Shown: positions 20,496 to 62,134, counted from the stretch's first letter. The stretch: DNA of 64,000 nt from an uncultured delta proteobacterium (GCA_963842915.1 CAWJII010000012.1:53320-117319); one strand, 5' to 3'. Notes: generated by a model from the letters alone, not told the origin. Translations and numbers: made by a program.

Positions 20496-20509
20496 TAGAA
20501 CGTGTTCTA
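20496..20509. promoter_or_regulatory. KstR-type operator between divergent hsaA and amidohydrolase
   Basis: TAGAACGTGTTCTA matches TnnAACnnGTTnnA; overlaps a minus-strand TGGACA-N17-TAGAAC promoter-like pair. Confidence 0.8.
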
Positions 20510-23807: not shown

Positions 23808-24386
23808 CTACTCCGCCAAGAGGAGCTCGGCCGCCTTGTCCATGTCCGAGAGGAGCTGAGATGCGTCGTGCAAGCCACCAGCCCAACCGACAAACGAAGC
23901 AAACCAGACGTTCTGTAGAATCGAGGCGATGGTGCGCTCGCGTTCGTCGACGTCCCCGCCCCACTCTCCCTGCTGAGAAGCAGCCTCGCCGCGAATCGCA
24001 GCCATGACCATCGCGGTAATTAGAGCGTGGAAGCTCGCGACTCGCTCGGTGATGTTCGGGTCTCCGGATGCCAGCGACCGAACCAGGGCTTTTGCGAGAT
24101 TCGGCCGGCGCAAAAGCCCCTTGGTCAGCGCCGAGAAGACGAAGCGCACACGTTCTCGAGGGCCATCACCGGGAACAGGTTTCTTTCCGATTTTGGACAC
24201 GAGCTTTTCGCTCTCTTGCTCGAGCGCTGCGATGAGGATTTCTTCTTTGCTGGCAAAGCGCTTGTAAACCGTCCCGAGCGCAACTTGCGCGCTGGCCGCG
24301 ACATCGCGGAGCCGTACAGCCTGGTACCCGTCACGCTCTGCGAGCTCTACGGCTGTTTCAACGATACGTTTGGCTCGATCATCCAT
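23808..24386 (-). CDS. kstR: TetR family regulator, KstR-like
   Basis: HTH RIVETAVELAERDGYQAVRLRDVAASAQVALGTVYKRFASK resembles mycobacterial KstR as I recall it; C-terminal NVWFASFVGW; lies inside the sterol operon. Confidence 0.75.
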   Translation of the reverse strand: MDDRAKRIVETAVELAERDGYQAVRLRDVAASAQVALGTVYKRFASKEEILIAALEQESEKLVSKIGKKPVPGDGPRERVRFVFSALTKGLLRRPNLAKALVRSLASGDPNITERVASFHALITAMVMAAIRGEAASQQGEWGGDVDERERTIASILQNVWFASFVGWAGGLHDASQLLSDMDKAAELLLAE

Positions 24387-25393: not shown

Positions 25394-26998
25394 CTAGGCG
25401 CTCGCCTGATTGCGGGCGATCTCCTCGGCCCAGGTGTAGTCTGGTTTTCCGCTCGGCATGCGAGAAACCGTCTCGGTGATGGTGATCTGTCGCGGGACCT
25501 TGTAGCCCGCGATGTGCTTGCGGCAGTGCTCTTGCACTTGCTCGAGAGAAAGCTGCTGATTGTCCCGCGTGTTGAATACCGCCGCGACCTTGGATCCGAA
25601 GCGAGAGTCCGGCACCGCGACGACGAGCGCGTCGATGACCTGCGGGTGCGCCTTGAGCGCTTCTTCCACCTCTTCGGGGAAGACCTTCTCACCACCGGTG
25701 TTGATGCACTTGCTGCCCCGGCCGAGGAACGTGATACGGCCGTCTTCTTCGATGGTGGCGAAGTCGCCGGGTACGACCCAGCGCTTGCCATTGAACTCCT
25801 TGAAGCGCTCGGCGGTCTTCTCGGGGTCCTTGTAGTAGCCGAGTGGTAGGCGGCCCGAGCGGGCGACCATTCCGATTTGTCCTGAGCCTGGCTCGATCTG
25901 GTCACCTTTCTCGTCTAGGACCGTGACCTCATCGCCCATGTAGAACGAGGGGCGGTTCTCGTGGCTGTCCTCGTCGCCTGCGGCGCGCCCAAGGTCACCC
26001 GATTCGCTCGTCCCGAAGCTGTTGATGATCATCACGTCGGGAAGCAGCGCTTCGATCTCCTCCTGAATGCTCGCCGAGAGGATGGCGCCTGCCGATGCGA
26101 TCACCGCCAGATTCGACATGTCGTACTCGCCCGCTCGGAGCTCCTCGACCAGAGGGATCGCCATCGCATCGCCGACCAGAGAGAGAGTCGACACGTCTTG
26201 TTCGGCAACGAGCGAGAGGATGCGCTTGGCGTCGAAGCTGGGGCCGTGCTGAAGCACCAGTTTCCCACCGGTCATGTGGCAGATCCATTGTGTCCATTGT
26301 GCAGCGCCGTGGATGAAGGGCGCACAGGGCAGCATGGTCACCGTGTACCAGCCCTCCTTGGCTTGCTCGACCAGCTGTTCCGGAGACTCGACCGGATCAC
26401 CCCCAGGCGATCCGCCCTGAAGCCCTGTGAAAAACAGGTCCTCGTGCCGCCACATGACGCCCTTGGGCATACCCGTCGTCCCGCCGGTGTAGATGATGTA
26501 GAGGTCTTTGCCCGATCGGGGACCGAAGCCACGCTCCTCGGAGCCCTGCGCCAAGGCGGTCTCGTACTCGATCGATTCCTGGTCGGCGACGCCGTCGGCA
26601 CCGTCTTCAATCACGATGAGCGACTTGAGCGGCTCGAGGCCTTCCATTGCCTCGTTGATCACCGGCAGGAAGCGACGCTGGGTGATCACCCCGACGAGGT
26701 CTGCGTTCTCGATCATGTATCGAACTTCGGGGGCCACGAACCTGTAGTTCATGTTGATTCCGACCGCGCGAATCTTGAAGAGCGCCAGAATCGCTTCGAC
26801 GAACTCGTGGCCGTTGAATAGATGAAGGCCGACGTGGTTGCCGGGGCCGATGCCGCGGGACGTGAAGTAGTGCGCCAAGCGATTGGCCCGCTTGTCGAGG
26901 TCTGCGTATGTGTGGTGAACGTCGCCCGAGGCCAAGGCGAGATTGTCGGGAACTGTGTCCGCGATGGCTTCGTAAAGATCTGCTAGATTGTATTCCAT
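25394..26998 (-). CDS. fadD19: Acyl-CoA synthetase, FadD19-like steroid side-chain CoA ligase
   Basis: MEYNLADLYE, IYTGGTTGMPKGVMWRHED, LGYYKDPEKT, PGDFA, GRGSKCINTGGEKVFPEEVE. Confidence 0.78.
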   Translation of the reverse strand: MEYNLADLYEAIADTVPDNLALASGDVHHTYADLDKRANRLAHYFTSRGIGPGNHVGLHLFNGHEFVEAILALFKIRAVGINMNYRFVAPEVRYMIENADLVGVITQRRFLPVINEAMEGLEPLKSLIVIEDGADGVADQESIEYETALAQGSEERGFGPRSGKDLYIIYTGGTTGMPKGVMWRHEDLFFTGLQGGSPGGDPVESPEQLVEQAKEGWYTVTMLPCAPFIHGAAQWTQWICHMTGGKLVLQHGPSFDAKRILSLVAEQDVSTLSLVGDAMAIPLVEELRAGEYDMSNLAVIASAGAILSASIQEEIEALLPDVMIINSFGTSESGDLGRAAGDEDSHENRPSFYMGDEVTVLDEKGDQIEPGSGQIGMVARSGRLPLGYYKDPEKTAERFKEFNGKRWVVPGDFATIEEDGRITFLGRGSKCINTGGEKVFPEEVEEALKAHPQVIDALVVAVPDSRFGSKVAAVFNTRDNQQLSLEQVQEHCRKHIAGYKVPRQITITETVSRMPSGKPDYTWAEEIARNQASA

Positions 26999-27010: not shown

Positions 27011-28159
27011 CTATCGCTTCGAGCTCACGATCCACATCGCGAAGAACTGCGAGCCTCCTCCGTACGCGTGACCGAGGGCCACCTTGGCGCCGTCTACTTG
27101 GTGCCGCTCTGCCGTGCCGCGAACCTGGCGCGCGGCTTCTGCGAATCGGAGCATACCACTGGCTCCAATCGGATTGGTGCACATGACCCCGCCGGACATG
27201 TTCCAAGGCATTTCGCCGCCGATCTTCGTCTTGCCTTCCATCGTCATCTTCCAGCCTTCACCTTCTTCGGCGAAGCCCAGATTCTCGAGCCACATCGGCT
27301 CAAACCAGGAAAACGGAACATAGACCTCTGCGCAGTCGATCTCTTTGAGCGGATTGCGGATGCCAGCCTCGTCGTAGGCGTCCTTGGCGCAAAGCTTACC
27401 CGCCGCGGGGTTCACCTGATCACGCCCGGCAAAGAAGGTGCGTTCCGTTCGGACCGAGGTTCCCTTCACCCAGGCCGGGTTCTTCACGCGGCCTGCGTGC
27501 TTTTCGCTCACCAGCACCATGGCGACAGCACCGTCGGACGACGGACATGTCTCCGAATAACGAATCGGATCCCAGAGCATCGGCGAGGCCTTCACCTGTT
27601 CGAGCGTCTGGTCGAGGTGCAGGTGGGCGTTTGGGTTGAGCAAGCCGTTTTGGCGATCCTTGACGGCGACCATGCAACCAGTATCCGGATGCGCGTCGGC
27701 GCGGCGGATGTAGGAACGGATGAGGGGCGCAAAGTAGCCCCCCGCGCCTGCGACGAGTTGTGGCTGGAAGGGGATCGCCGGCGAGAGCGCCCACATCGCG
27801 TTGGCCTCGCTTTGCTTCTCGAACGCGAGAGTGAGCACCTTCTCGTGCACCCCGCCCTGAACGAGGTGTGAGGCCACCACGGCAGTCGAGCCGCCCACCG
27901 AACCGGCGGTGTGGACGCGGAAGATCGGCTTCCCGGCCGCGCCGAGCGCATCCGACAGCCAGAGCTCCGGCATCATGACGCCTTCGAACATGTCGGGCGC
28001 AGTGCCGATGACGATGGAATCGATGTCCTTCCATGTCATGTCCGCATCTTGCAAGGCGCGAAGCGCAGCGTCTCGAACTAGGCCGGGAATCGACAGGTCG
28101 CGCCGGCTCTCGCGGTGCTTGGTCTGACCGATCCCGATGACCGCACAATGCTCAGCCAT
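27011..28159 (-). CDS. ltp3: Thiolase-like aldolase Ltp3
   Basis: Own start MAEHCAVIGIGQT in TAATG overlap with the true ltp4 stop; APDMFEGVMMPE, RVHTAGSVGGST, ETCPSSDGA, GHAYGGGSQFF. Confidence 0.85.
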   Translation of the reverse strand: MAEHCAVIGIGQTKHRESRRDLSIPGLVRDAALRALQDADMTWKDIDSIVIGTAPDMFEGVMMPELWLSDALGAAGKPIFRVHTAGSVGGSTAVVASHLVQGGVHEKVLTLAFEKQSEANAMWALSPAIPFQPQLVAGAGGYFAPLIRSYIRRADAHPDTGCMVAVKDRQNGLLNPNAHLHLDQTLEQVKASPMLWDPIRYSETCPSSDGAVAMVLVSEKHAGRVKNPAWVKGTSVRTERTFFAGRDQVNPAAGKLCAKDAYDEAGIRNPLKEIDCAEVYVPFSWFEPMWLENLGFAEEGEGWKMTMEGKTKIGGEMPWNMSGGVMCTNPIGASGMLRFAEAARQVRGTAERHQVDGAKVALGHAYGGGSQFFAMWIVSSKR

Positions 28160-29215
28160 TACTCCCCCTCCAAGACGGCTACGAGGTTGTGTTGAAGGCA
28201 GACGCCGTTCGTGGTGTGGGCCAGGGCGCGACCGGCGTCTCCGGAAAGAATCCGGCTGGCGGCTTCGCCGAAGCGAATCAGGCCAGCGGTCATCAGCGAG
28301 TTGGCTGCCAACGCGCCGCCCGACGGGTTGACGTTCACGTCCTCCCCGAGCCCCATCGCCTCGCGCAAGATGATCTCCTGGTGGGCAAAGGGTGCGTGAA
28401 GCTCCGCGACGTCGATCCTTGCCCTTGCCGAGGCCCGCCTTTTCGGCGGCGAGAGTCGAAGACGGCGATGTCGTGAGGTCACGCTGGCCTAGCGCATGCG
28501 GCTCGGTCCGATGGTCGATGCCTCGAATCCAAGCCGGCCTCTGCACCAGCTCTCTGGCCCGGTCCCCTGCTGCGAGCACGATGGCTGCAGCCGAATCAGA
28601 GAGCGGCGGACAGAAACTCTTGCGCAGGGGGGAGCTCAGGTAGGGCTCTTCGAGCATCGCATCCACACTGAAGTCTCCCTTGATCTGAGCGTTTGGATTG
28701 TCGATCGCGTTCCTTCGATTGCGAACAACCACGTCTGCGAAGTCACGCTCAGTCGCCTTGCCAGCGTCGATCATCGCCTGCGCCTGAAGCGCTGCGGCGC
28801 TGATCGAATCGAGCCCCAGAGGCTGCACGTAGTACGGGTCGTTCTGCAGGTTGAGGATGTCTGGGACCGGCCCTAGCGAGCTCTTCCCGAACGAGAACAC
28901 CAGTGCGGTGTCGATGTCACCATGCAGAAGTCGAACCCAGGCCTCGAAAAGCGCAAAGGCGCCGTCCATCTCGACGTGTGACTCGCGAATCGGAGGAAAA
29001 GCCTTGAGGCCGTCGACCGCCGCAACGAACGAGAACGGACGCCCCGGCAGATAGTCGGTGCTGCCCGAACAGGTGAAACCAATGTCGTCTTGGGTGAGCC
29101 CGACCTGCTTCATCGCATCCGAGGTGACCGGCTGAACGAGCTCCGCTTCATCCGCAGCGTCGATGGATTTCACAGAGGGAAGCTGTGAGAAGGACACAAT
29201 GGCGACGTCGCGCAT
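28159..29215 (-). pseudogene. ltp4: Thiolase-like aldolase Ltp4 with a +1 frameshift (real mutation or sequencing error)
   Basis: MRDVAIVSFSQ...FTCSGSTDY...PPIRESHVEMDGAFAL up to AGLGKGK; the expected C-terminus IDVAELHAPFAHQE...NPSGGAL...CLQHNLVAVLEGE* is in another frame. Extra G in AAG-G-ATC at 28417-28418. Confidence 0.8.
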
Positions 29216-30529: not shown

Positions 30530-30543
30530 TGAAACATGTTCTA
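30530..30543. promoter_or_regulatory. KstR-type operator upstream of the SCP2...kstR operon
   Basis: TGAAACATGTTCTA; overlaps the -10 of a minus-strand TTGACG (30566-30561)-N17-TAGAAC. Confidence 0.8.
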
Positions 30544-38305: not shown

Positions 38306-38319
38306 TAGAACGCGTTTCA
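38306..38319. promoter_or_regulatory. KstR-type operator upstream of echA20-ipdABC
   Basis: TAGAACGCGTTTCA matches the consensus; lies just downstream of a minus-strand TTGACC (38332-38327). Confidence 0.78.
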
Positions 38320-46960: not shown

Positions 46961-46974
46961 TGAAACATGTTTCA
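46961..46974. promoter_or_regulatory. KstR-type operator upstream of the oxidoreductase-SDR-ACAD-ipdF operon
   Basis: Perfect palindrome TGAAACATGTTTCA between TTGCAG (46951) and CAGTCT (46973). Confidence 0.82.
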
Positions 46975-46986
46975 GTCTAAGGGCGC

Positions 46987-50840: not shown

Positions 50841-52015
50841 TGGAGCTACAGCTAAGCAGAGAAGAAGAGGCGTTTCGGCAAGAGGCGCGTGCCTGGTTGA
50901 AAGAGCAGCTCAACGGCCCCTTCAAGGACTTGCAGGGGCGCGGTGCTTCAGGCGACCAGGACACCTATGTCGACGAGCGGATCGCCTGGGGCAAAGTCAT
51001 GGGCGCGGCGGGCTGGAACTGCATCGGCTGGCCCAAGGAGTTCGGGGGGCGCGGCTGTACGATCAAGGAAGAGGCTGTCTTCAACGAGGAGTACGTCCGC
51101 GCGAACGGACCAGGCAACGTCGGACACATTGGCGAAACGCTTCTCGGCCCTACCTTAATTCACTTCGGCTCGCCGGAGCTGCAGAAGCGCTTTTTGCCGC
51201 CCATTGTCTCCTGTGACGAAATCTGGTGTCAGGGCTACTCGGAACCCGGTGCGGGCTCTGATCTGGCAAACGTGCAGACGAAGGCCGAGCTGGTCGGAGA
51301 CGAATGGATCATCGAGGGGCAGAAGATCTGGACCTCGGGCGCACAGTACTCGGACTGGTGCTTCGTCCTGTGCCGCACGGACCCGGAGGCACCGAAGCAC
51401 CGGGGCATCAGTTACATCCTGGTTCCGATGAAGCAGGACGGCGTTGAGGTGCGGCCGATCAAGCAGATGGGCGGAAGTGCCGAGTTCGCGGAGGTGTTCT
51501 TCGACGGTGCCAAGGCTCACAAGGACCACGTCGTCGGTGGCGTCAACAAGGGCTGGAAAGTAGCGATGGGCACCCTCGCCTTCGAGCGCGGCGCATCGAC
51601 GCTGGGGCAGCAGTACCTCTTCCAGAAGGAGTTCGAGCAAGTCGTCGAGGTCGCTAAGCGAACAGGTGCCGCGAAGGACCCGGTCTTCCGCCAGCGCATC
51701 GCAAACGCCGGGATCGGACTCAAGATCATGCGGGTCAACGCTCTGCGTATGCTGGAGCACGAAGGCGCCGACCTGAACCGTGAAGCGCTGATCAGCAAGC
51801 TCTACTGGTCGAACTGGCATCGCGACCTCGGAAAGCTCGCGATGGACTTGCTCGGCCCGGAAGCAGAGCTCCTCGATGGCGCACCCTACGAGCTCACCGC
51901 CATGCAGAAGTGGTATCTCTTCGCGCGAGCCGACACGATTTACGCCGGCTCGAATCAGATTCAACGAAACATCATCGGCGAACGAGGACTCGGGCTGCCG
52001 AAGGAGCCACGATGA
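50840..52015 (+). CDS. fadE30: Acyl-CoA dehydrogenase FadE30 (IpdE1)-like
   Basis: HIGETLLGPTL, WCQGYSEPGAGSDLANV, TLAFERG, KLYWSNWHRDLG, LFARADTIYAGSNQIQRNII, LGLPKEPR. Confidence 0.8.
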   Translation: MELQLSREEEAFRQEARAWLKEQLNGPFKDLQGRGASGDQDTYVDERIAWGKVMGAAGWNCIGWPKEFGGRGCTIKEEAVFNEEYVRANGPGNVGHIGETLLGPTLIHFGSPELQKRFLPPIVSCDEIWCQGYSEPGAGSDLANVQTKAELVGDEWIIEGQKIWTSGAQYSDWCFVLCRTDPEAPKHRGISYILVPMKQDGVEVRPIKQMGGSAEFAEVFFDGAKAHKDHVVGGVNKGWKVAMGTLAFERGASTLGQQYLFQKEFEQVVEVAKRTGAAKDPVFRQRIANAGIGLKIMRVNALRMLEHEGADLNREALISKLYWSNWHRDLGKLAMDLLGPEAELLDGAPYELTAMQKWYLFARADTIYAGSNQIQRNIIGERGLGLPKEPR

Positions 52016-52794
52016 CCAGCAAACCCACGTACGTCGGCGGGCACGGCCTGCTCGAAGGCAAGACCGTTCTCGTCACCGCTGCTGCCGGCACAGGCATCGG
52101 GTTCGCAACAGCCATTCGCTGCGCCGAAGAAGGCGCCTCGGGCCTGATGATCAGCGACATCCACGAGCGGCGGCTCGGCGAAGCGGCCGACAAGATCGAA
52201 GCCGAGACCGGGGTTCGGCCCGAAACGATCATCTGCAACGTCACCAAAGAAGACGACGTCCAGGCGATGTTCGAGTTTGCCGTGGAGAAGATGGGGCACG
52301 TCGACGTCCTGATGAACAACGCCGGGCTCGGGGGCTACGCCAAGATTGTCGACATGACCGACGAGCAGTGGAATCTCGTGCTCGACGTCACCCTCAACGG
52401 TTGCTTTCGCTGCACCCGCGCCGCCCTCAAGCACATGATGCCACGCGGACAGGGCGCAATCGTCAACAACGCCTCGGTGCTCGGCTGGCGCGCGCAAGAA
52501 GGGCAATCTCACTACGCCGCTGCGAAGGCGGGCGTCATGGCGCTGACCCGGTGTGCGGCGATCGAAGCCGCCGAAGGCAACGTGCGCATCAACTGCGTCT
52601 CGCCATCCCTCGCCATGCATCCGTTCCTGCAGAAGGTCACCCCGCCGGGCCTGCTCGAAGAGCTCAAGAAGCGCGAAGCGTTCGGCCGTGGCGCCGAGCC
52701 CTGGGAGATTTCAAACGTCATGGTTTTCTTGGCGAGCGACTACAGCTCGTACATGACGGGCGAGGTGCTGTCGGTATCGAGCCAGCGGGCCTGA
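52012..52794 (+). CDS. ipdF: SDR IpdF (Rv3559c)-like
   Basis: GHGLLEGKTVLVTAAAGTGIG, SDIHERRL, NNASVLGWRAQ, YAAAK, AMHPFL, SYMTGEVLSVSSQRA. Confidence 0.83.
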   Translation: MTSKPTYVGGHGLLEGKTVLVTAAAGTGIGFATAIRCAEEGASGLMISDIHERRLGEAADKIEAETGVRPETIICNVTKEDDVQAMFEFAVEKMGHVDVLMNNAGLGGYAKIVDMTDEQWNLVLDVTLNGCFRCTRAALKHMMPRGQGAIVNNASVLGWRAQEGQSHYAAAKAGVMALTRCAAIEAAEGNVRINCVSPSLAMHPFLQKVTPPGLLEELKKREAFGRGAEPWEISNVMVFLASDYSSYMTGEVLSVSSQRA

Positions 52795-52796
52795 AG

Positions 52797-53774
52797 CTAG
52801 GCGGCACTCATCCGAGCCTGCCAGGCGTCGGAATAGCGCAACATGTACCGGCGGATGAGCGGAGAGAACATCCGTGCCAGCGGCCTGGTGAATCGCGATG
52901 CTTTGCGCATTTGTCCGATGAATTCCGCGAAGCTGATGCGCTGGTAGCCCAGGAGCGATTGGCTTTCTTCGGTGTCGAGCCAATCGCAGTAGTAGGCGCC
53001 TCTACCATACGCTTCCGCGGGGAACTGCCCCACCCCGGTGGCGTCAAACATGGCGCCGTAGAACTCGCGGAAGGTCAGTCGACAATTTTCGCCGCCCCCG
53101 ATCATCAGCGTCTTGCAGATCGCCTGCGGGTTTTCGATCGCACGGACCTGTCCCAGTGCGACGTCTTCGGGATGCACCCATTCGAGGCGCGTGTCCGGGT
53201 TGATGCTGAATAGCAGCCGAAAGACATCCGGCGAGAGGTCACCCGCGGCTGCTTTCACACCGACCGACACCCCGATTCGGAAGATGACGTACGGTAGGCC
53301 GGAGTCGCGGAGAAGCTGCTCGCACTCGGCTTTGTTCGCGGTGTAGGTGTCGGTCGCAACGGCCGGATCATCGCCCGTCAGAGGCGGTCCACCGGGGACG
53401 CGTGGGCCGCACACAGACAAGGACGAGGCGAAGACGATCACCGGCGGATGCTCCTTGCGTCTCATCGCATCGAGGATGTTCTTCGTACCGCCCACATTGA
53501 CCGCATAGGCCAGGTCCGGATGGTTCTCAGAGACAGGCGCCAGAACGCCTGCGTTGTGAATGATCGCATCGCAGTCGGCGACGGCAGGGGCGATGTCAGC
53601 CGGCGATCGGATGTCTCCCCATACGATTCGAACCCGGTCGTCAAACTGCCGGGCGGCCCTTTGATTTCGCCGACTCGGCAGGTCGAACGCGATGACCGAA
53701 TGCCCCTCCTTCAAGAGTCGCTCGACTCCCGCCAGCCCAAGCCGGCCAAACGCCCCAGTTACCAACACGCGCAT
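52797..53774 (-). CDS. NAD-dependent epimerase/dehydratase (extended SDR, 3beta-HSD-like)
   Basis: MRVLVTGAFGRLG, IIHNAG, VNVGGT, YTANK. Confidence 0.85.
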   Translation of the reverse strand: MRVLVTGAFGRLGLAGVERLLKEGHSVIAFDLPSRRNQRAARQFDDRVRIVWGDIRSPADIAPAVADCDAIIHNAGVLAPVSENHPDLAYAVNVGGTKNILDAMRRKEHPPVIVFASSLSVCGPRVPGGPPLTGDDPAVATDTYTANKAECEQLLRDSGLPYVIFRIGVSVGVKAAAGDLSPDVFRLLFSINPDTRLEWVHPEDVALGQVRAIENPQAICKTLMIGGGENCRLTFREFYGAMFDATGVGQFPAEAYGRGAYYCDWLDTEESQSLLGYQRISFAEFIGQMRKASRFTRPLARMFSPLIRRYMLRYSDAWQARMSAA

Positions 53775-53811
53775 CCGCGCAGGCTGACCTGCGGCAGCGC
53801 CCGCTTCAAAT

Positions 53812-53825
53812 TGAAACACGTTCTT
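53812..53825. promoter_or_regulatory. KstR-type operator (one mismatch) upstream of LLM-fno-cofEDC
   Basis: TGAAACACGTTCTT; overlaps the -35 of TTGAAA (53811)-N17-TAGGGT (53834). Confidence 0.65.
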
Positions 53826-53895
53826 CTTGCTGATAGGGTCCCACTCCCAGAAAAACCCAGGTTGCCTCCTGTTCGGGGGCCCGAAGGAGTTGCGA

Positions 53896-54939
53896 ATGAA
53901 GCTCGGCCTAACACTTGGATATGCAGGTCCTCAGTTGAACACGACGGTCCAGGATCTCGTGAACATGGAGAAGATCGCTGAGGTCGAGCGACTCGGCTAC
54001 GATTCGATTTGGACGGCGGAGTCCTGGGGCAACGACGCGGTCACACCGCTCGCCTGGGTCGGATCGCAGACCTCGACGATCAAGCTCGGCACGGCGATCA
54101 TGCAGCTCCCCGGTCGCTCACCGGCAAACGCGGCGATGACGGCCATGACCATGGACACGCTTTCGAACGGACGCTTCATCATGGGGCTCGGCACCTCAGG
54201 TCCTCAGGTCGTCGAAGGTTGGCACGGCGTACCCTTCAACAAGTCACTCACCTGGCTCCGGGAGTACGTCACGATCGTGAAGAAGATCTTCGCGCGTGAA
54301 GCGCCGCTCGAGTTCGACGGCGTGCGCTATCAGATCCCATATCGCGGCGAAGGCTCCTCGGGTCAGGGCAAACCGCTCCGAAGCATGATCCGAAGCCGAG
54401 CCGACATTCCGGTCTTCACCGGCTCCATGGCGCCGAAGTCCCAGGCTATGTCCGCCGAAATCGCCGACGGTTGCCTGCTCACCTGCATGCACCCCGGGCG
54501 CCCGGAAGTTCTGATGAAGAACTTCAACGAAGGTTTCGAGAAAGCGGGGAATGCAAAGGGGGTCGAGAGCTTCGACATCGCTCCTACGGTTGTGGTCATC
54601 ATCGGTGACCCGCAGTACGCGATGACGCCTTGCAAGATGCAGCTCGCGCTCTACATCGGTGGCATGGGCTCGAAGAAGAAGAACTTCTACAAGGACTATC
54701 TGAGCCTGGTCGGCTTCGAAGAGGCCTGCGAGAAAGTTCAAACGCTCTTCCTCGACGGCAAGCGCAATGAGGCCATCGCCGCTGTGCCCGACGAAATGGT
54801 TGACGCGCTCTACCTGGTAGGCTCTAAAGATCGCATTCGCGACCGGTTCCAGCGTTGGAAGGATTCGCCCGTCGGAACTCTGATGGTCGGTTCGCAGGAC
54901 ATGGACACGCTCCGCTTCGTGGCCGAGCTCAACTCGTGA
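53896..54939 (+). CDS. LLM-class F420-dependent oxidoreductase (Rv3520c-like)
   Basis: MKLGLTLGY, WTAESWG, IKLGTAIMQ, GLGTSGPQVVEGWHG, ALYIGGMG..KNFY. Confidence 0.88.
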   Translation: MKLGLTLGYAGPQLNTTVQDLVNMEKIAEVERLGYDSIWTAESWGNDAVTPLAWVGSQTSTIKLGTAIMQLPGRSPANAAMTAMTMDTLSNGRFIMGLGTSGPQVVEGWHGVPFNKSLTWLREYVTIVKKIFAREAPLEFDGVRYQIPYRGEGSSGQGKPLRSMIRSRADIPVFTGSMAPKSQAMSAEIADGCLLTCMHPGRPEVLMKNFNEGFEKAGNAKGVESFDIAPTVVVIIGDPQYAMTPCKMQLALYIGGMGSKKKNFYKDYLSLVGFEEACEKVQTLFLDGKRNEAIAAVPDEMVDALYLVGSKDRIRDRFQRWKDSPVGTLMVGSQDMDTLRFVAELNS

Positions 54940-54946
54940 GGCAACA

Positions 54947-55603
54947 ATGAGGATTGGAATCGTAGGAGGCACCGGTCGCGAGGGGCGGGGCTTGGCCGTT
55001 CGTTGGGCGAAGGCCGGACACGAGGTGTTCATCGGATCTCGGCAGGCCGAAAAGGGACTGGCGAAGGCAGCCGAGTTCTCGGAGGAATTCGGAGTCAGCA
55101 TCCGGGGTGCCGACAACCTGAGCGCCTGTGAGCACGCCGAGCTGATCATCGTGACGGTTCCGTATGGCGCGCATCGCGCGACATTCGAGTCGATTAAAGA
55201 CGCGGTAGGCGACAAGGTGATCGTAGACATCACGGTACCGTTGCAGCCGCCCAAGGTTCGTTCTGTGAATCTGCCCGAAGGGCAATCAGCTGCTTTGGAA
55301 GCGCGCGCACTGCTCAACGAGGGCTCGCGTCTCGTCGCGGCTCTCCACCACATCAGCTCGGAGCACCTCAGCGACCCGAAGCACACCTTTGACTGCGACG
55401 TCTTGGTCTGTGGCGACGACAAGGAGGCCCGCGCCGCCGTGATCTCACTGGTCTCGGACCTGGGACTTCGCGGCATCGACGCTGGCGTCTTGAAGAACGC
55501 GATTGCCCTGGAGTCGATCACGCCGGTTCTTCTGCACATCAATCGCCGATACAAGAGCGTGGGCTCCGGCATTCGCATCACGGGCATCCCGGAGACGGAA
55601 TGA
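54947..55603 (+). CDS. npdG: NADPH-dependent F420 reductase (Fno/NpdG)
   Basis: MRIGIVGGTGREG, IGSR, VTVPY, DITVPL, CDVLVCGDD, LESITPVL, GIRITG. Confidence 0.92.
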   Translation: MRIGIVGGTGREGRGLAVRWAKAGHEVFIGSRQAEKGLAKAAEFSEEFGVSIRGADNLSACEHAELIIVTVPYGAHRATFESIKDAVGDKVIVDITVPLQPPKVRSVNLPEGQSAALEARALLNEGSRLVAALHHISSEHLSDPKHTFDCDVLVCGDDKEARAAVISLVSDLGLRGIDAGVLKNAIALESITPVLLHINRRYKSVGSGIRITGIPETE

Positions 55604-56415
55604 GCCTCGGCGAGCCAAGTTCGGTCGACATGCACGTCGGCTCGGAGCTCTTGGTTCGCGCGATCGCCGGTGTGCCGACGATCGATGTGGGAGATGACCT
55701 CTTCGAGCTGATCGTTTCGAGCCTCAGCCGCTCCGACATCGAGCTTGCCGACGGCGACGTGCTCGTCCTCGCGAGCAAAATCGTCTCGCGCGCGGAAGGC
55801 TGTTTCGTCGACTTGGGAACAATCGAGCCAGGCGAAAAGGCCGACAAGCTCGCCATAGAGCTCGAGAAGGACCCGCGTCTGGTGGAGCTGATTCTCCGGG
55901 AGAGCGTCGGGATTTCTCGGAAGACCAGTGGCGCGCTGATCGTCCGGCACAGACTGGGCTTCATTTCGGCGAACGCAGGCATCGACGCAAGCAATGCGAC
56001 GCCCGGGAGCATCCCCGCAGGCACGGGCCCCTGGGTGCTCACCTTGCCCCATGATCCGGACGCTAGCGCCGCGGCGCTTCGAGCAAAGCTCTGTGAGCAC
56101 TACTCGGCCGAGGTCGCAGTTCTCATCACAGACTCTTGGGGACGTCCATTTCGACGTGGCACCGTGGGCTTTGCACTGGGCATGGCAGGACTGCCTGCCA
56201 TTTGGGATCGTCGCGGCGCGATCGACCGCCATGGCCGGGTGCTCGAAGCTACCGAATCTGCGGTCGCCGATTCCATCGCGGCAGCCGCCGACCTCGTGGC
56301 CGGACAAGCCAACGAAGGGCGTCCCGTGACTCTGGTACGTGGCCTTCAGTTCAAAGCGTCGCACGATTCGGCGGCGGTCTTGCTTCGCGATCCCGAAAAC
56401 GACTTGTACGCATGA
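55600..56415 (+). CDS. cofE: Coenzyme F420-0:L-glutamate ligase (stand-alone, no nitroreductase domain)
   Basis: [53 protein letters not shown]. Confidence 0.93.
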
Positions 56416-57347
56416 GCGCCGCGTCCGAGAAGAAGCTCTTGGTCGTCGCGCTAGCGGGCGGCGTGGGCGGAGCCCGTCTCGTGGACGGACTCGATTCCGT
56501 ACTCCCTCCGGGCTCGCTCACGGCGGTGGTAAACACCGGTGACGACTTTCAGCACTGGGGCCTGCACATCAGCCCCGACCTCGACACCGTGATGTACACG
56601 CTCGCGGGCCTTTCTCCCGAGGATCGCGGCTGGGGCATCGAGGGCGACAGCTTCCAGGTTCTCGCGGAGGCCAGGCGCCGGGGAGTTGACGACTGGTTCC
56701 AGCTCGGCGACCGCGACCTGCTCACCCACCTGTCGCGCTCCGCCGCGTTAGCCCGGGGCGATTCTCTTACTCAGGCAACCGCGGAACTCTGTAGCGCGCT
56801 CGGCGTAGAGCGGCCGATCCTGCCCATGAGCGACGGGCCCTGCCCAACGAGCATCCTGACCAGAGACGGCGCCGATCTCGCATTCCAGGACTGGCTGGTG
56901 AAGGCGCGAGCCGTGCCCGCGGTGAGCCGAGTTCGTCACGGAGGAAGCGCTCGGGCGACGCGGTCCGCCCTCGACGCTCTGAGCGCTGCCGACCTCGTCC
57001 TGATTTGCCCTTCGAACCCCTACGTGTCGATCAATCCAATCCTGCGTCTGCCGGGCGTATCTGAAGCCGTGCGGCGCTCGATGACGATCGCGGTGAGCCC
57101 GATTCTCAACAGCAAGGCGGTGAAGGGGCCGCTCGCCACGATGATCTCGGAAATCGAAGGCCACAGCCCATCGGCCGCGGCGGTCGCCATGCAATACGAG
57201 GGTTTGCTGGATGGCTACGCGGTTCATCTGGGCGACTCCTTTGGAGCCAACTATCCAATTCTCGAAACGAACATCCTGATTCAAACGAAAGCAGATCGGC
57301 TGCGCTTCGCTGGCGAGCTGCTCGAGTTCGCACGGAGCCTGACATGA
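56412..57347 (+). CDS. cofD: 2-phospho-L-lactate transferase
   Basis: [51 protein letters not shown]. Confidence 0.94.
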
Positions 57348-57940
57348 GCCGCTGGGCATTGATCCCCGTCAAGGGCTTCGATCGTGGGAAGTCGAGGCTC
57401 TCGGAAGTTCTGCCTCCGGTCGAACGGGCTGCCTTGGCGCGCTCATTGTTCGAACACGTCGTGCAGGTCCTTCGGGAGTCTCCGGACATCGACGACATCG
57501 CAGCGGTGAGCGACTCGGCAGAAGCCCGTGCGCACGCCGAAGGTCTGGGCGTGTTGGCGCTCGCGGACGCGGAGCACAGCCCAGGCCTGGCTGAGGTCGT
57601 CGATGGCGCCCTCCGCGACTTGGAGCAGCGTGGCGCCGTCAGCGTGCTGATCTGCATGAGCGACCTACCGAATCTGGCCATGCAGGACATCGCCGCCGTC
57701 GCGCGGCAACTCGAGGAAAGCGACGTCGTGCTCGTGCCCGATCTCGCGAAGCAAGGCACCAACCTCATCGCGGTGAAGCCAGCCACCGGACTTCCGAGCT
57801 GCCTCGGACACGAGGACAGCCTGCAACGTCATCAGGCGCGCGCTTGTGAGCTCGGGTTGAGCGTCAGCATCCAGCTTAGTAGCGGCATCGGATTCGACGT
57901 CGATGGCCCCGGCGACCTCGATCGATTGCGCGAGCGCTAG
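57344..57940 (+). CDS. cofC: 2-phospho-L-lactate/PEP guanylyltransferase
   Basis: WALIPVK, GKSRL, MSDLP, GTN, FDVDGPGDL. Confidence 0.9.
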   Translation: MSRWALIPVKGFDRGKSRLSEVLPPVERAALARSLFEHVVQVLRESPDIDDIAAVSDSAEARAHAEGLGVLALADAEHSPGLAEVVDGALRDLEQRGAVSVLICMSDLPNLAMQDIAAVARQLEESDVVLVPDLAKQGTNLIAVKPATGLPSCLGHEDSLQRHQARACELGLSVSIQLSSGIGFDVDGPGDLDRLRER

Positions 57941-58746
57941 TGCCCCGCGGAGAGACGGTCCATGAGCAGGCCCAGGAAGCGTGCGGCAAGTCGACGCGGC
58001 AGCAGTCTGATCGTCAGGACCATGAGCTTGTTGAGCAAGCCGGGAACGACCGTCACCCGCCCGCCCAAGGTCTGCAAGCTCGTGGCGACGACCGAAGCAG
58101 GACTGGCGAATATCAGGCGCGCCAATGGTCCGAAGTTCCGAGGATCGAGGCCGGCGACCTGCTGGAACTCGGTCGTGGTCCCTCCAGGACAAAGCGCCTG
58201 CACGTCGACGCCGTAGGGTCGGAGCTCTTCGGCGAGACCTTCGGCGAAGAGCAGATCGTACGACTTTGTCGCGTTGTAGTTGGCCATGCCGCCTGCTCCG
58301 GAGAACGCGTTGACTGAGGAGACGAAGATGACGCCACCTCTACCCCGTTCGCGCATTCCCTGAGCGATTTCGTGCGTCAGGAGCATTGGAGCGCGGCAAT
58401 TCAGGTTGAGCATCGACTCCTGAACGCTCGGGTCCATGTCGAGGAAGGGCCCGCTCGAACCGAAGCCCGCGCAATTGATCAGCAAGCCGACCTCGATGTT
58501 AGCAAGCGCCGGTCGCAACACCTCGACGATGTCGCGCGACGCGAGGTCAGCGGGAGCCACTCGCACCTCGACCTGGCACATGTCTTCGATGGTCGAGGCG
58601 AGCGCTTCGAGACGGTTACGGCGGCGCGCCACGAGCACGACGTTGATGCCGTGATCGGCAACGCGGCGCGCGAACTGCGCTCCAATTCCCGCGGAAGCGC
58701 CGGTAATGACGGCCCATGGTCCGTACCGCTCGGCAAGCTGGCTCAT
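57937..58746 (-). CDS. SDR family oxidoreductase (17beta-HSD/KAR-like)
   Basis: RYGPWAVITGASAGIG, LVARR, YNATK, LCPGGT. Confidence 0.88.
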   Translation of the reverse strand: MSQLAERYGPWAVITGASAGIGAQFARRVADHGINVVLVARRRNRLEALASTIEDMCQVEVRVAPADLASRDIVEVLRPALANIEVGLLINCAGFGSSGPFLDMDPSVQESMLNLNCRAPMLLTHEIAQGMRERGRGGVIFVSSVNAFSGAGGMANYNATKSYDLLFAEGLAEELRPYGVDVQALCPGGTTTEFQQVAGLDPRNFGPLARLIFASPASVVATSLQTLGGRVTVVPGLLNKLMVLTIRLLPRRLAARFLGLLMDRLSAGH

Positions 58747-58786
58747 AGCCGGGCAGCGTATCACGCGACGCCGTGGCGGACAGCCT

Positions 58787-60064
58787 CTAGCTGACGACGC
58801 GCAGGCCGCGGGGCTCGTAGTGAAAGCGCGGTTCCCGGGTGAGCGCATCGTAGGAGCCAAAGACCGAATCGGGGTCCTGAATCGCATCGAGTGGCTCGCT
58901 CGGGTCCTGATCAAATGTATCCCCGAATTCGCGAATCACACCGTAGCTGGTGTCGCGCTGCACCGGCACCCTCCCCGAGTCTCGAATGACTCGGCGCAAG
59001 GTCGCGGGCGTCATCAGCTGTCCGTTCCGAGCCCCGGCAGCAGTCGAGATGCTCTCGTTCATCAGAGTCCCGCCGAGATCATTGACACCACAACTCAGTA
59101 GCAGCTGCGAAGTGCGAAGGCCTTCTTTGACCCAGGATGCCTGGAGGTTGGGGATGTCCCGGCCGAGCATGAGGCGGGCCGTCGCATAGAGGCGTAAGAC
59201 CTCGTCACCGGTCGGCCCCGGTCGGACGCCGGCGACCTCGCTTGCCGCGAAGAGCGGGGCTTCCTCGTGCACGAAAGACAGAGGAACGAACTCGGTGAAG
59301 CCTCCGGTCTCCCGCTGGACTCTGCGCAGCAAGTCCATGTGCCGCATCCGATCCTCTACCGTCTCGACGTGACCGAACATCATCGTCGAGCTGGTTCGAA
59401 TTCCGAGGTGATGGGCGGAGGTAACCACGTCCAGCCATTCGCTGGTCGCGATCCGGGTCGGTGAAATCGTCTTGCGCAGACGGTCGTCGAGGATCTCGGC
59501 CGAGGTGCCGGGAAGCGTACCGAGGCCGGCATCCGCGAGCTCGGCCAAGTACTCCGAGTACGACACTCGCTTGAGCGAAGCGCCGAACTTCACCTCTTCT
59601 GGAGAGAAGGCGTGGATGTGAATCTCAGGCGCGGCTTCCTTCACGACACGGCACAGCTCGATGTAGCTGTCTCCATCGAGATTCGGCGAAAGCCCGGCCT
59701 GCAAGCAAACCTCCGTGGCGCCCATCTCCCAGGCCTGACGCACACGCCGTGCAACCTCTTCCTGAGGAAGGAAGTAGCCCTGCTCCGAGCGCACCGTGCG
59801 CGCAAACGCGCAGAACTTGCAGTTCTTGATGCAGACGTTGGTGAAGTTGATGTTGCGGTTGACCACATAGGTGACGCGATCACCCCGCTGCTGCCGGCGA
59901 AGCTCGTCGGCAACCATGCACAAGGCTTGGAGGTCGCGGCCACGTGCCTCGTTCAAGGCGACGCCGTCGTGAATGCTGAGCTCTTCGCCGTCGAGGCTTC
60001 GTTCGAGGATCGCGCGAATGTCGCGCGTGACTGCTTGCAAGCAGGTTTCGAGAGCGGTCGTCAT
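58787..60064 (-). CDS. cofH: FO synthase subunit 2 (radical SAM)
   Basis: NRNINFTNVCIKNCKFC, TEVCLQAG, PGTSAEILDD, FTEFVPLSFVH, QASWVK, NDLGGTLMNESIS. Confidence 0.93.
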   Translation of the reverse strand: MTTALETCLQAVTRDIRAILERSLDGEELSIHDGVALNEARGRDLQALCMVADELRRQQRGDRVTYVVNRNINFTNVCIKNCKFCAFARTVRSEQGYFLPQEEVARRVRQAWEMGATEVCLQAGLSPNLDGDSYIELCRVVKEAAPEIHIHAFSPEEVKFGASLKRVSYSEYLAELADAGLGTLPGTSAEILDDRLRKTISPTRIATSEWLDVVTSAHHLGIRTSSTMMFGHVETVEDRMRHMDLLRRVQRETGGFTEFVPLSFVHEEAPLFAASEVAGVRPGPTGDEVLRLYATARLMLGRDIPNLQASWVKEGLRTSQLLLSCGVNDLGGTLMNESISTAAGARNGQLMTPATLRRVIRDSGRVPVQRDTSYGVIREFGDTFDQDPSEPLDAIQDPDSVFGSYDALTREPRFHYEPRGLRVVS

Positions 60065-61203
60065 GTCGTAGCAAGCTCCTGCTCAAGCAGAACGATGCGG
60101 GGGCGCAGAGACGCGTCGACGAAGCCCGGCGCATCGAGGTGAGTGGGATATACCGGCAGTCGCGCTTCGAGTCGAAACCCTTCGGATTCGCAGGCCTCGC
60201 GGAGGCGTTCTAGGTAGGGCCAGGGGTGCTGCGGGTTGATGTAGTCCGGGCTGACCGGTGAAATGCCACCAAAGTCGTTGATGCCCGCGTGAATCAAGGT
60301 CGCAGTCGAGGCCGGATTGAGGTTCGGTGGCGCCTGGACGCTGACGTCGTCGTCGAGGATGAGCCTGGCCAAGGCGACCGTGGCAGCGAGCTCCTCGGAA
60401 CTGGGTTCGCCCGCGAGTCCCATCGCTGTGCTGGGATGCGAGCGGAAATTTTGGACGATGACTTCACCGATGTGACCGTGATCTCGGTGCAGGCGCCGAA
60501 TCGCGAGAATCGTGTCAACGCGCTCTTCGACGGTTTCCCCGATTCCGATCAGCAGCCCCGAAGTGAACGGGATTTGAAGCTCGCCCGCTTCCCGGGTCAT
60601 TTGAATCCGTTTGGCCGGTCGTTTGTCGGGGGCGCGGTGGTGCGGCATGCCCTTGTCGCAGAGACGCTCGCTGACGTTCTCGAGCATCAACCCGAGGCTC
60701 ACGTTCACGGGTCGCAAGGCGATCATGTCGTCGCGAGAGAGAATCCCGGCGTTGGTATGCGGAAGGAGCCCGGCGGCGAGCGCTTCCTGGGCGGCCCATC
60801 GAAGGTAGTCGACCGTCCGCTGGTGACCCCAGGAACGCAGCAAGGCGCGATATTCACGAAAGCCAGTCTCGGGCGTGTCGCCGAGGCAGAACAGCGCCTC
60901 GATGCAGCCCTGATCGCGCGCTCGGTGGAGCCAAACGCGAATCTCGTCGGGGCTCATCGTCCATTCGCCGGCGTCGCCGGGCGAGCGACGGAACGAGCAG
61001 TAGTCGCATTGGTTCCTGCAGAGGTTGGTGATCGGCAGAAACACCTTGGGCGAGTAGGTCAGTGTCTTGCCCCAGGCTCTATCCCGCCGCACTCGAGCCG
61101 CCTGGCAAAGGCTGGCAGTGTCGAGCTCGCTCAGTCGGTAGGCATCCTGCTCACCGACCGGTCCGAGCCTTGCACCGTCCAGAATTGTCGGCATCGAGCT
61201 CAT
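60061..61203 (-). CDS. cofG: FO synthase subunit 1 (radical SAM)
   Basis: TYSPKVFLPITNLCRNQCDYC, LPHTNAG, SLGLMLE, PFTSGLLIGIGE, EVIVQNF, QAPPNL, DYINPQHPWP. Confidence 0.93.
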   Translation of the reverse strand: MSSMPTILDGARLGPVGEQDAYRLSELDTASLCQAARVRRDRAWGKTLTYSPKVFLPITNLCRNQCDYCSFRRSPGDAGEWTMSPDEIRVWLHRARDQGCIEALFCLGDTPETGFREYRALLRSWGHQRTVDYLRWAAQEALAAGLLPHTNAGILSRDDMIALRPVNVSLGLMLENVSERLCDKGMPHHRAPDKRPAKRIQMTREAGELQIPFTSGLLIGIGETVEERVDTILAIRRLHRDHGHIGEVIVQNFRSHPSTAMGLAGEPSSEELAATVALARLILDDDVSVQAPPNLNPASTATLIHAGINDFGGISPVSPDYINPQHPWPYLERLREACESEGFRLEARLPVYPTHLDAPGFVDASLRPRIVLLEQELATT

Positions 61204-62075
61204 TGCATCTTTGCGATGACCGTGTCCGCGAATCGGTTCAGTCCATCAATGCGCCCCTGCAAGTCGCCGCCCACCATGGGAGTCCCGTACATGAGCCAGG
61301 GAACGGTGATGATGTCCGTCACACCTGCATCTTCGAGGCTCTTGAAGCCATCGGCGTTCCAGACGTCGGTGACCACCGCCTGGTACTCCATCGGCAAATG
61401 ATCGCGGCCGTACTCTTTGCGAAAGGCTTCGATTTGGCCGATCAGCTCGAGCAGCTTCTTTGAGGGAAGCATCGCTGAGGACCAGCCGTCACCATATTTC
61501 GCGGCTCGCCGAAGCCCGGGCCTGGTGTGGCCCCCGATGTAAATCGGGATCGGCTTGCTCGGCACCGGGCTCATCTGAATCTTACCGAAGTCGTAGTGCT
61601 CGCCATGGTATTCGACCATGCCGCCGCCCCAGATCAGTCGAAGGATCTCGAGGCACTCGTTCATGCGCTTGCCGCGCGTGTCGAAGTCGGTACCACACCA
61701 CTTGAATTCCTCGGGCAACCAGCCGAGTCCGCAGCCGAAGCCAAAGCGGTTGTTTGATAGTGCCGCCAAGGAAGCGACCTGTTTTGCAACCAAGACCGGG
61801 TGACGCACGGGCAGCTTCACGACGCTGGTGTAGAAGAAAATCGACTTGGTGGCGCCTGCCATGGCGGCCGCGCCCACGATGGGCTCGATCCAAGGCGTCT
61901 CGCCATCCCACATGCGGCTACCATCTTGAGTGTACGGGTACGGCTTGCTGACTTCTTCGGAGAAGAAGATCGAGTCCGGTAGGACGATGGCGTGATAGCC
62001 GAGTTTCTCCGCCTCCTGAGCGACCGGGATATAGTGCTCGGGCGGCGCCATGGCGATGGACGCAGAGAATTTCAT
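61200..62075 (-). CDS. LLM-class F420-dependent oxidoreductase (Rv2161c/TIGR03619-like)
   Basis: YPYTQDG, VKLPVRHPVLVAKQ, GLGWLPEEF, IPIYIGG, RAAKYGDGW; ATGA overlap with cofG. Confidence 0.87.
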   Translation of the reverse strand: MKFSASIAMAPPEHYIPVAQEAEKLGYHAIVLPDSIFFSEEVSKPYPYTQDGSRMWDGETPWIEPIVGAAAMAGATKSIFFYTSVVKLPVRHPVLVAKQVASLAALSNNRFGFGCGLGWLPEEFKWCGTDFDTRGKRMNECLEILRLIWGGGMVEYHGEHYDFGKIQMSPVPSKPIPIYIGGHTRPGLRRAAKYGDGWSSAMLPSKKLLELIGQIEAFRKEYGRDHLPMEYQAVVTDVWNADGFKSLEDAGVTDIITVPWLMYGTPMVGGDLQGRIDGLNRFADTVIAKMQ

Positions 62076-62134
62076 CGGCCGGACCTTAGCATAGCGGAGC
62101 CCCTGGCAAAGCCGCGATCAAGCGCGCATGCGGC

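Follow-up and report, generated by a model that had tools for sequence, protein, structure and literature searches.

A candidate KstR-type operator upstream of an LLM-fno-cofEDC operon in the sterol island of an uncultured Polyangiales bacterium

In Mycobacterium tuberculosis the repressor KstR bound the intergenic site between Rv3520c and Rv3521 (Kendall et al. 2007, PMC1995591), and a 2026 review (PMC12855090) counts Rv3520c as an F420-dependent oxidoreductase of cholesterol degradation; as a Baeyer-Villiger monooxygenase it was inactive (PMC9044951). F420-dependent luciferase-like oxidoreductases (LLMs) fall into a reductase (Mer) and a dehydrogenase (FGD) group (PMC6279831), mycobacterial FDORs reduce cyclohexenone (PMC5449967), and Ltp3/Ltp4 and FadD19 are reported to be needed for C24-branched sterols, not for cholesterol (PMC6273163 and PMC6593523, citing Wilbrink et al. 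2012). Actinobacterial cholesterol clusters have been known since 2007 to contain LLMs of the Rv3520c type, no reaction having been assigned to these enzymes. In M. tuberculosis, Rv3521 is followed by ltp4 and ltp3 and Rv3520c lies near ltp3/ltp4 and fadD19; the mycobacterial fbi genes are located away from Rv3520c. Here we describe a stretch of 64,000 nucleotides from an uncultured delta proteobacterium (the window; GCA_963842915.1, CAWJII010000012.1:53320-117319), in which an Rv3520c-type LLM gene (LLM1) opens an operon with the F420 genes fno, cofE, cofD and cofC behind a candidate KstR-type operator.

The operon and its box suggest an F420-dependent step of sterol breakdown that has not yet been described. 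The first-pass annotation of this DNA had read the F420 genes as apparently belonging to the steroid regulon and proposed a new F420H2-dependent step, and our analysis supports this interpretation in part. Full-text searches, judged by title and start of abstract, found nothing in print linking F420 biosynthesis genes to a sterol regulon, and nothing describing an arrangement of LLM-fno-cof genes with a KstR box in Myxococcota. The window (about 62% G+C) is part of a 4.59-Mb genome (G000; 16 contigs, 99.9% complete), whose host is best explained as an uncultured member of the Polyangiales (Myxococcota) with an actinobacterial-style, KstR-controlled sterol catabolic regulon. Relatives of the host were found in sediment and salt-marsh metagenomes. 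The locus adds sediment Polyangiales to the candidate sterol degraders.

The LLM1-fno-cofEDC operon and its upstream box

The identities of the genes and the architecture of the operon leave practically no room for doubt (Table 1). All family calls for the operon and for cofG and cofH exceed the curated NCBIfam cut-offs, the five biosynthetic enzymes (CofC, CofD, CofE, CofG, CofH) and Fno exceeding equivalog cut-offs. LLM1, whose start was re-placed to 53896 (MKLGLTLGYAG...) behind a GAAGGAG ribosome-binding site, is the sole passer of the TIGR03559 cut-off among the nine LLMs of the genome. Seven nucleotides separate it from fno, and the three following junctions are ATGA overlaps (55600, 56412, 57344); family scores and junctions together confirm the tight coupling noted in the first pass. 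All F420 genes are single copy by tblastn against the genome, so that fno, cofE, cofD and cofC have no further copy outside the operon. The gene order from LLM1 to cofC is kept in all congener loci of sufficient length.

The candidate box TGAAACACGTTCTT is situated in a divergent intergenic gap of 121 bp (53775-53895) between LLM1 and an extended short-chain dehydrogenase/reductase (SDR) gene. The ATG of the SDR gene is 37 nt away from the box and that of LLM1 70 nt, and the box flanks AAAt/cTTg fit the extended consensus of the boxes of this genome. A loose one-mismatch pattern is by itself not significant (14 matches versus 8.2 expected). We used a weight matrix built from 19 genome sites of the strict TRRAACnnGTTYYA class with their common A-rich and T-rich flanks, the candidate being outside the training set. 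Its score of 22.4 ranks 21st genome-wide, and four 4.59-Mb second-order Markov genomes with matching trinucleotide make-up contained no site of 22.3 or more (maximum 21.6). The 21 genome sites that reach 22.4 comprise 17 intergenic ones, three at most 40 nt from a longest-ORF start and one inside an ORF; below the candidate the scores drop to 18.7 or less, at sites that are mostly within genes. The window also encodes a KstR ortholog, whose best solved-structure match is M. tuberculosis KstR (E 4.3e-22, residues 3-191) and for which tblastn returned no paralog, and it harbors four perfect boxes versus 0.42 expected, all of them intergenic, a number that none of 100 shuffles reached. Given the KstR ortholog, the four perfect boxes, the rank and the simulated genomes without an equal site, the candidate box is unlikely to be due to chance, and it probably represents a functional KstR operator acting on the LLM1 operon.

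Two blocks, TCAAATTGAAA and CCTGATAGGGT, recur at a fixed spacing of 17 nt across the congeners, those with a decayed right half of the box included. We infer that TTGAAA is the −35 element and TGaTAGGGT an extended −10 element facing LLM1, so that the operator would overlap the −35 and the spacer. The first-pass annotation had described a KstR-type box that overlaps the −35 and is shared with a divergent 3beta-HSD-like gene. The box as such, with 13 of 14 positions matching, stands above background, and the gap is indeed common to the SDR and LLM1 genes; its overlap with a −35 depends on the predicted promoter, for which a sigma-70 scan made no call. The label of the divergent gene, whose start was re-placed to 53774 (MRVLVTGA), is weak as well, since the match to 3Beta_HSD (2e-18; Epimerase, 1.2e-23) covers 158 of 280 profile positions and no NCBIfam model exceeds its cut-off.

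Two other operator motifs were rejected. The KstR2-type motif AnCAAGnnCTTGnT had five matches with at most one mismatch, none of them perfect, which were taken as chance and which all lie outside both the promoter gap (53775-53895) and the 59 nt that precede LLM2; the short core GAACnnGTTC (two matches versus 1.05 expected) was uninformative. No RNA family of Rfam matched positions 52700-62300 at E up to 0.1, and scans for terminators and consensus promoters found nothing in 53600-54100 and 57700-58200. Several congener loci (L002, L004, L006, L016 and L024) have a GGGGAC-TGT-CCCC hairpin with a T run behind it in the leader that separates the LLM start from the promoter blocks. The hairpin, which is doubled in L016 and absent from this window, may act as an attenuator or represent a small repeat element.

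Table 1. Positions of the F420 and steroid features in the window
Feature	Coordinates	Strand	Basis or remark
Candidate KstR-type operator TGAAACACGTTCTT	53812..53825	.	13/14 match to TnnAACnnGTTnnA; T instead of A at position 14
Inferred LLM-operon promoter	53811..53839	+	−35-like TTGAAA (53811-53816), 17-nt spacer, extended −10-like TGaTAGGGT (53831-53839)
LLM1, F420-dependent luciferase-like oxidoreductase	53896..54939	+	TIGR03559 F420_Rv3520c, 361.3 bits vs cut-off 335
fno/npdG, NADPH-dependent F420 reductase	54947..55603	+	TIGR01915, 205.3 vs 149.8; single copy in genome
cofE, F420-0:L-glutamate ligase	55600..56415	+	TIGR01916, 250.1 vs 180.65; stand-alone, 271 aa
cofD, 2-phospho-L-lactate transferase	56412..57347	+	TIGR01819, 260.8 vs 257.45
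cofC, guanylyltransferase	57344..57940	+	TIGR03552, 124.6 vs 105
Divergent extended SDR (epimerase/3beta-HSD superfamily)	52797..53774	-	Pfam; monocistronic; conserved in congeners
Convergent operon LLM2-cofG-cofH-SDR	57937..62075	-	LLM2/cofG and cofG/cofH overlap by ATGA
LLM2, second F420 LLM	61200..62075	-	TIGR03619
cofG	60061..61203	-	380 aa; 415.6 vs cut-off 213.35
cofH	58787..60064	-	425 aa; 470.8 vs cut-off 374.1
SDR2	57937..58746	-	End of LLM2-cofG-cofH operon
KstR ortholog, TetR	23808..24386	-	192 aa; last gene of SCP2-DUF35-Ltp4/3-FadD-KshA operon, directly after kshA
Perfect KstR box	20496..20509	.	Between hsaA and amidohydrolase gene
Perfect KstR box	30530..30543	.	Heads SCP2...KshA-KstR operon
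Perfect KstR box	38306..38319	.	Upstream of echA20-ipdAB-ipdC
Perfect KstR box	46961..46974	.	Upstream of operon of enone-reductase-like ADH, SDR, acyl-CoA dehydrogenase (ACAD) pair and SDR, ending beside LLM locus
FadD19-like CoA ligase	25394..26998	-	Same side-chain module as Ltp4/Ltp3
Fused Ltp4/Ltp3 aldol-lyase-like thiolase	27011..29215	-	One 734-aa ORF

Most of the window is a steroid-catabolic island with hsaA-, hsaF- and hsaG-like genes, kshA, a FadD19-like ligase, the fused Ltp4/Ltp3, DUF35/ChsH-like and SCP2 genes, ipdA, ipdB, ipdC, echA20, a FadD3-like ligase, several ACAD pairs and thiolases. The repressor would be autoregulated, because the box at 30530 heads the operon that contains kstR. 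Among the genes next to the other top-scoring genome sites are a second kshA copy, a kshB-like reductase, two kstD-like flavoproteins, thiolases and ACAD genes, an ipdC-like NMO, an hsaB-like flavin reductase and an alpha/beta-hydrolase, as well as an aldehyde dehydrogenase, a GMC oxidoreductase, a P450 and a sulfatase. The genes at the top box sites are thus recognisable as a predicted sterol regulon, in which the motif is clearly in use.

Several details of the island and the regulon stand apart from the LLM1 locus. In the stretch 46961-48009, the gene behind the perfect box encodes an MDR-family enone or double-bond reductase, with NADPH-dependent curcumin reductase as the best model (359 bits, below the cut-off of 440). 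Ltp4/Ltp3 is encoded by two adjacent genes (residues 1-266 and about 260-734) in all 20 other family genomes sampled (19 congeners and G096) and the same split is seen in several genomes at a greater distance, stop codons often separating the halves; the single ORF of the window is either a genuine fusion or an assembly frameshift. Elsewhere in the genome, two tandem perfect boxes lie between an 811-aa sulfatase gene on the minus strand and a KshA-like gene (G000 C4:112117-112145; L117 4001-4029), which hints at sulfated sterols as substrates, and sulfatase genes also flank the LLM-fno-cof operon in L064. The box-like TAGTACATGTTCTA (G000 C3:304942; L115 about 4001), with a score of 31.6, is located 401 nt inside a 550-aa ORF without a Pfam match and reflects either a wrong ORF call or an intragenic operator.

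Conservation of the box and distribution of LLM1

Our congener sample comprised 44 loci with an LLM identity of at least 83%, and 38 of them could be assessed for the box, six lacking upstream sequence. Compared with TRRAACnnGTTYYA, six loci have no mismatch, 15 have one, five have two and 12 have three or more; the box is accordingly kept with at most one mismatch in 21 of 38. Thirteen loci share the exact GTTCTT variant of the window, and the two free central bases vary among them (AC, GC, GT). The perfect copies belong to loci with an LLM identity of 83-92%, which are the more divergent ones sampled, and about half of the loci keep the box. The operator therefore looks ancestral, having been retained by roughly half of the species and lost by the others.

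The arrangement recurs beyond the congeners, as seen in 36 distant loci with an LLM identity of 47-65%, 22 of which were inspected in detail. The fno gene adjoins the LLM in 17 of the 36, on the same strand in ten and on the opposite strand in seven. Three loci from records titled Kofleriaceae (L084, L087, L098) and one titled 'Myxococcales' (L085) have a cluster of LLM-fno-cofEDC and cofHG genes that is flanked by steroid genes. All four, L098 included, show a box with echA20-ipdA at one end of the cluster, and in L084, L085 and L087 the opposite end borders kshA and one or more boxes. In L076, two tandem perfect boxes precede a string that runs from a CoA-transferase gene to LLM1-fno-cofEDC, and two further tandem perfect boxes precede a P450-cofG-cofH string with overlapping junctions. 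A perfect box is positioned 27-28 nt before LLM1-fno-cofE-cofD in L064 and L108, both of which are devoid of a divergent gene and have co-directional, non-steroid neighbours. On other contigs, their genomes encode ipdA and a single KstR ortholog (49% identity); because the neighbours are unrelated to steroids and kstR and ipdA are remote, the box of these two loci cannot serve a neighbouring steroid gene. Conversely, the LLM ortholog of L067 and L081 is part of a steroid cluster (thiolase, kstR, kshA, ipd genes), and cof genes are absent from its vicinity.

The distribution of LLM1 was established in 151 Polyangiales genomes of at least 85% completeness, G000 included, the same set being used for every marker. 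The gene cofE is present in 47 genomes, and an LLM of the TIGR03559 class exceeds the cut-off in 43, all of them cofE-positive. KshA_C was dropped as a sterol marker, the family being too broad, with weak matches of about 1e-23 to 1e-33 in many large genomes; a threshold for 'strong KshA' had been set post hoc, and no argument here is based on it. KshA_C was replaced by protein queries with IpdA and Ltp3/4. IpdA was found in 27 genomes, every match at 1e-116 or better, and Ltp3/4 in at least 30, a floor value that derives from a stricter first look. Identity to LLM1 is bimodal, with orthologs of 63-100% in 29 genomes and values of at most 56% in the rest.

The association of Rv3520c-like genes with ltp3/4, which the first-pass annotation had named as a check of its proposal, is borne out. 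The LLM1 ortholog and Ltp3/4 occur together in 29 genomes, LLM1 alone in none, Ltp3/4 alone in one (G075, 89% complete) and neither in 121; the figures for LLM1 and IpdA are 26 with both, three with LLM1 only, one with IpdA only and 121 with neither. LLM1 orthologs are absent from all 18 other cofE-positive genomes, and contrasts within the genera g7, g10, g30 and g41 agree with the pattern. This distribution argues that LLM1 is tied to the sterol side-chain module and not to F420 synthesis in general, and it narrows the search for the LLM substrate. We offer no P-value, because 20 of the 29 LLM1-positive genomes belong to one genus and about six families are represented.

Proposed function and alternative explanations

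LLM1 is best explained as the myxobacterial counterpart of Rv3520c, judging from the HMM score and from its context, i.e. the KstR box and the association with ltp3/4; homology searches with LLM1 matched unnamed or generically named LLMs and singled out no actinobacterial ortholog. Its use of F420 is predicted from the family, from the Mer-like relatives and from cofE being present in all 43 genomes with the TIGR03559 family. The closest solved relatives of LLM1 are F420-dependent Mer reductases (E about 1e-18), FGD being matched at 8e-6, and this proximity together with the pairing with Fno suggests a reductive direction.

Our observations concern the identities of the genes, the layout of the operon, the quality of the motif, the content of the regulon, synteny and the phyletic pattern; KstR binding, promoter position, sterol induction, reaction direction and substrate are predicted as follows. 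In the absence of sterol, the KstR ortholog would bind the imperfect operator over the −35 and dampen LLM1-fno-cofEDC, and probably also the divergent SDR gene, until sterol-derived CoA thioesters free the operator. Fo from the separately transcribed cofG/cofH would be turned into F420 by CofC, CofD and CofE, Fno would charge F420 with hydride from NADPH, and LLM1 would apply F420H2 to a sterol intermediate. The likeliest role for LLM1 would be a reduction in the Ltp3/Ltp4/FadD19 module for C24-branched sterols, e.g. of a side-chain ketone or a conjugated enoyl- or dienoyl-CoA. That LLM1 acts in sterol catabolism is likely, and the account as a whole, in which KstR modulates LLM1-fno-cofEDC and LLM1 carries out an F420H2-dependent step of sterol breakdown, is the one we moderately favor; its narrower assignment as a reductase of the Ltp3/4 side-chain branch is possible at best and on balance doubtful.

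A second F420 enzyme is linked to the regulon outside the window (G000 C13:145495-147704; L113 4001-6210). There, a perfect box at C13:145495 lies 35 nt before a kstD-like gene, whose stop codon is overlapped by the start of an FDOR-A gene (PF04075). The box is present in six of six congeners sampled and FDOR-A in three of the six. The FDOR-A protein (F420H2_quin_red) is a candidate F420H2-dependent 3-ketosteroid enone reductase paired with the dehydrogenase.

A number of observations weigh against sterol control of the LLM1 operon. The candidate box is imperfect at position 14, although an M. tuberculosis site with T at this position (Rv3531c/Rv3532) bound KstR (PMC1995591). It is closer to the SDR start than to the LLM1 start, and a consensus sigma-70 scan called no promoter in the region because TAGGGT fits only three of the six positions of TATAAT. 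In 17 of 38 congeners the box is degraded by two or more mismatches, and the control must therefore be evolutionarily dispensable. In metatranscriptomic data (three runs from two studies), contigs match parts of SDR, LLM1, fno, cofE, cofD, cofC, SDR2 and cofG/LLM2 (window 52000-62200) with 0-2 differences per 160-290 nt; they document presence only and not transcript starts, levels or regulation, DNA carry-over is possible, and uncovered stretches are uninformative. One of these RNA-library contigs spans the fno/cofE junction, and such contigs do not prove a single transcript.

The remaining F420 genes likewise limit the claim. No recognisable KstR box was found for cofG/cofH, neither in the 59-nt gap upstream of LLM2 nor nearby, and the regulon claim is therefore limited to the steps from Fo to F420. 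The minus-strand string 57937-63945 consists of metH (its C-terminal part is visible), a beta-lactamase-family gene, LLM2, cofG, cofH and the SDR gene; cofG/cofH may be co-transcribed with the upstream metH and beta-lactamase-family genes, and given the lack of a KstR box on this string Fo and F420 production may be under separate regulation. The proposal that cofactor, recharging enzyme and client are induced together thus fits LLM1, fno, cofE, cofD and cofC behind the box and does not extend to the separate, unboxed cofG/cofH. Furthermore, at least 13 other F420 enzymes are predicted, the genome having eight F420-class LLMs, four FDOR-A and at least one FDOR-B, and only two of its LLM/FDOR F420 enzymes are linked to boxes. 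No Fgd-type LLM was identified among the eight F420 LLMs and fno is the only identified route to F420H2, so that tight repression would starve or disable the other F420 enzymes. The unboxed cofGH, the many other enzymes, the single route through fno and the decay of the box lead us to favor modulation, i.e. a basal level that is raised by sterol, over on/off control.

Some of these observations would equally suit a box that controls the divergent SDR only, with LLM1-fno-cofEDC as a constitutive or otherwise regulated housekeeping cofactor operon that borders the island by chance. The distances of 37 and 70 nt, the missing sigma-70 call and the decayed boxes beside an intact operon are consistent with it, and the 13 or more other clients favor a constitutive supply of cofactor. 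However, the perfect box in L064 and L108 directly precedes LLM1-fno-cofED far from steroid loci and with no divergent gene, the tandem boxes of L076 stand before both cof-containing strings, and in the window the left half-site coincides with the conserved TTGAAA block, which at its fixed distance of 17 nt from TGaTAGGGT points to LLM1. We regard control of the SDR alone as unlikely. An oxidative direction of LLM1, in which a sterol alcohol is oxidised with F420 as acceptor and Fno hands the hydride to NADP+ to give NADPH, would draw on the reversibility of Fno and on the alcohol and sugar dehydrogenases among the F420 LLMs (FGD/Adf group; PMC6279831); without an identified Fgd-type LLM among the eight, substrate oxidation could feed F420H2 to the four FDOR-A. 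The sequence of LLM1 is, however, much nearer to the Mer reductases than to FGD and the regulon is already rich in NAD(P)-dependent SDR/HSD candidates, which speaks for reduction and makes the oxidative direction decidedly unlikely.

The sterol link might also result from hitch-hiking in the island, with LLM1 as a generic companion of F420 biosynthesis, either a maturation or a core redox enzyme. Such a companion would explain why 43 of the 47 cofE-positive Polyangiales genomes have a TIGR03559-class LLM, why fno adjoins LLM1 in 17 of 36 distant loci and why the LLM1-fno-cof loci L064, L075, L090 and L108 have no steroid genes nearby. Against it, the TIGR03559 matches split into orthologs (at least 63% identity) and paralogs of about 50%; of the cofE-positive genomes, the 18 that lack sterol genes have at most a paralog or a match of 56% or less, and in four of them no LLM of this class was found. 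Orthologs also reside in steroid clusters distant from cof genes (L067, L081, G120, G124) and were found only where ltp3/4 was found, and M. tuberculosis Rv3520c shares its KstR-bound intergenic region with Rv3521 (PMC1995591). The generic role appears very unlikely, and participation of LLM1 in sterol catabolism is retained. The phyletic pattern has weaknesses of its own: the 63% threshold was set after the gap between 56% and 63% had been seen, three LLM1-positive genomes (G040, G068, G095) have no ipdA match, the predominance of one genus among the 29 genomes and the roughly six families leave few independent lineages, and physical linkage in one mobile island could alone be behind the co-occurrence of LLM1 and ltp3/4.

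With an orphan LLM joined to genes for cofactor maturation and recharging behind a candidate sterol-repressor site, the old question of its reaction becomes a defined assay, and the locus offers a predicted case of cofactor biosynthesis under substrate-specific control. More tentatively, and with the odds rather against it, F420 may be required for bacterial sterol catabolism of C24-branched or unsaturated side chains in two phyla; the Rv3520c-type LLM would then be the missing F420H2 reductase of the Ltp3/Ltp4 branch, the CofC/CofD/CofE and Fno of Myxococcota would belong to the KstR regulon and provide F420 on demand, and FDOR-A would be a second client.

Comparison with known systems

The FDOR-A/Ddn reductases (PMC5449967) reduce enones of the cyclohexenone type, the motif of ring A in 3-ketosteroids, and their PF04075 family is represented here behind a perfect box together with a kstD-like gene. 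The main text of that paper names no steroid substrate, and the kstD-like/FDOR-A pairing is confined to three of the six congeners. The Ltp3/Ltp4/FadD19 module has its equivalent in one KstR-box operon of the window with a FadD19-like ligase, Ltp4/Ltp3 and a DUF35/ChsH-like gene; it differs in the fusion of Ltp4/Ltp3, and no F420-dependent or LLM step is mentioned in the accessible portions of PMC6273163 and PMC6593523.

The F420 genes themselves resemble the non-actinobacterial F420 operons (PMC8498797) in the split CofG/CofH, the stand-alone CofE and the clustering of cof genes with Fno and LLM clients. The separate cofG and cofH and a CofE with a single Pfam domain and no FbiB-type C-terminal domain show that the locus does not have the actinobacterial FbiC/FbiB architecture. 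The difference from the non-actinobacterial operons lies in its position within a sterol island and behind a candidate sterol-repressor operator; in the main text of the 2021 review PMC8498797 the terms 'steroid', 'cholesterol', 'Myxococc' and 'Deltaproteobacteria' are absent.

With the KstR regulon of M. tuberculosis and M. smegmatis the locus shares the TetR-type KstR, the TnnAACnnGTTnnA operator in divergent intergenic regions of the sterol cluster and an F420-class LLM of the TIGR03559 family behind a KstR-type operator, which is predicted in the present case. It differs from both mycobacteria in its myxococcotal host and in the position of kstR as the last gene of a catabolic operon, and above all in the LLM gene being co-operonic with fno, cofE, cofD and cofC, with cofG and cofH adjacent.

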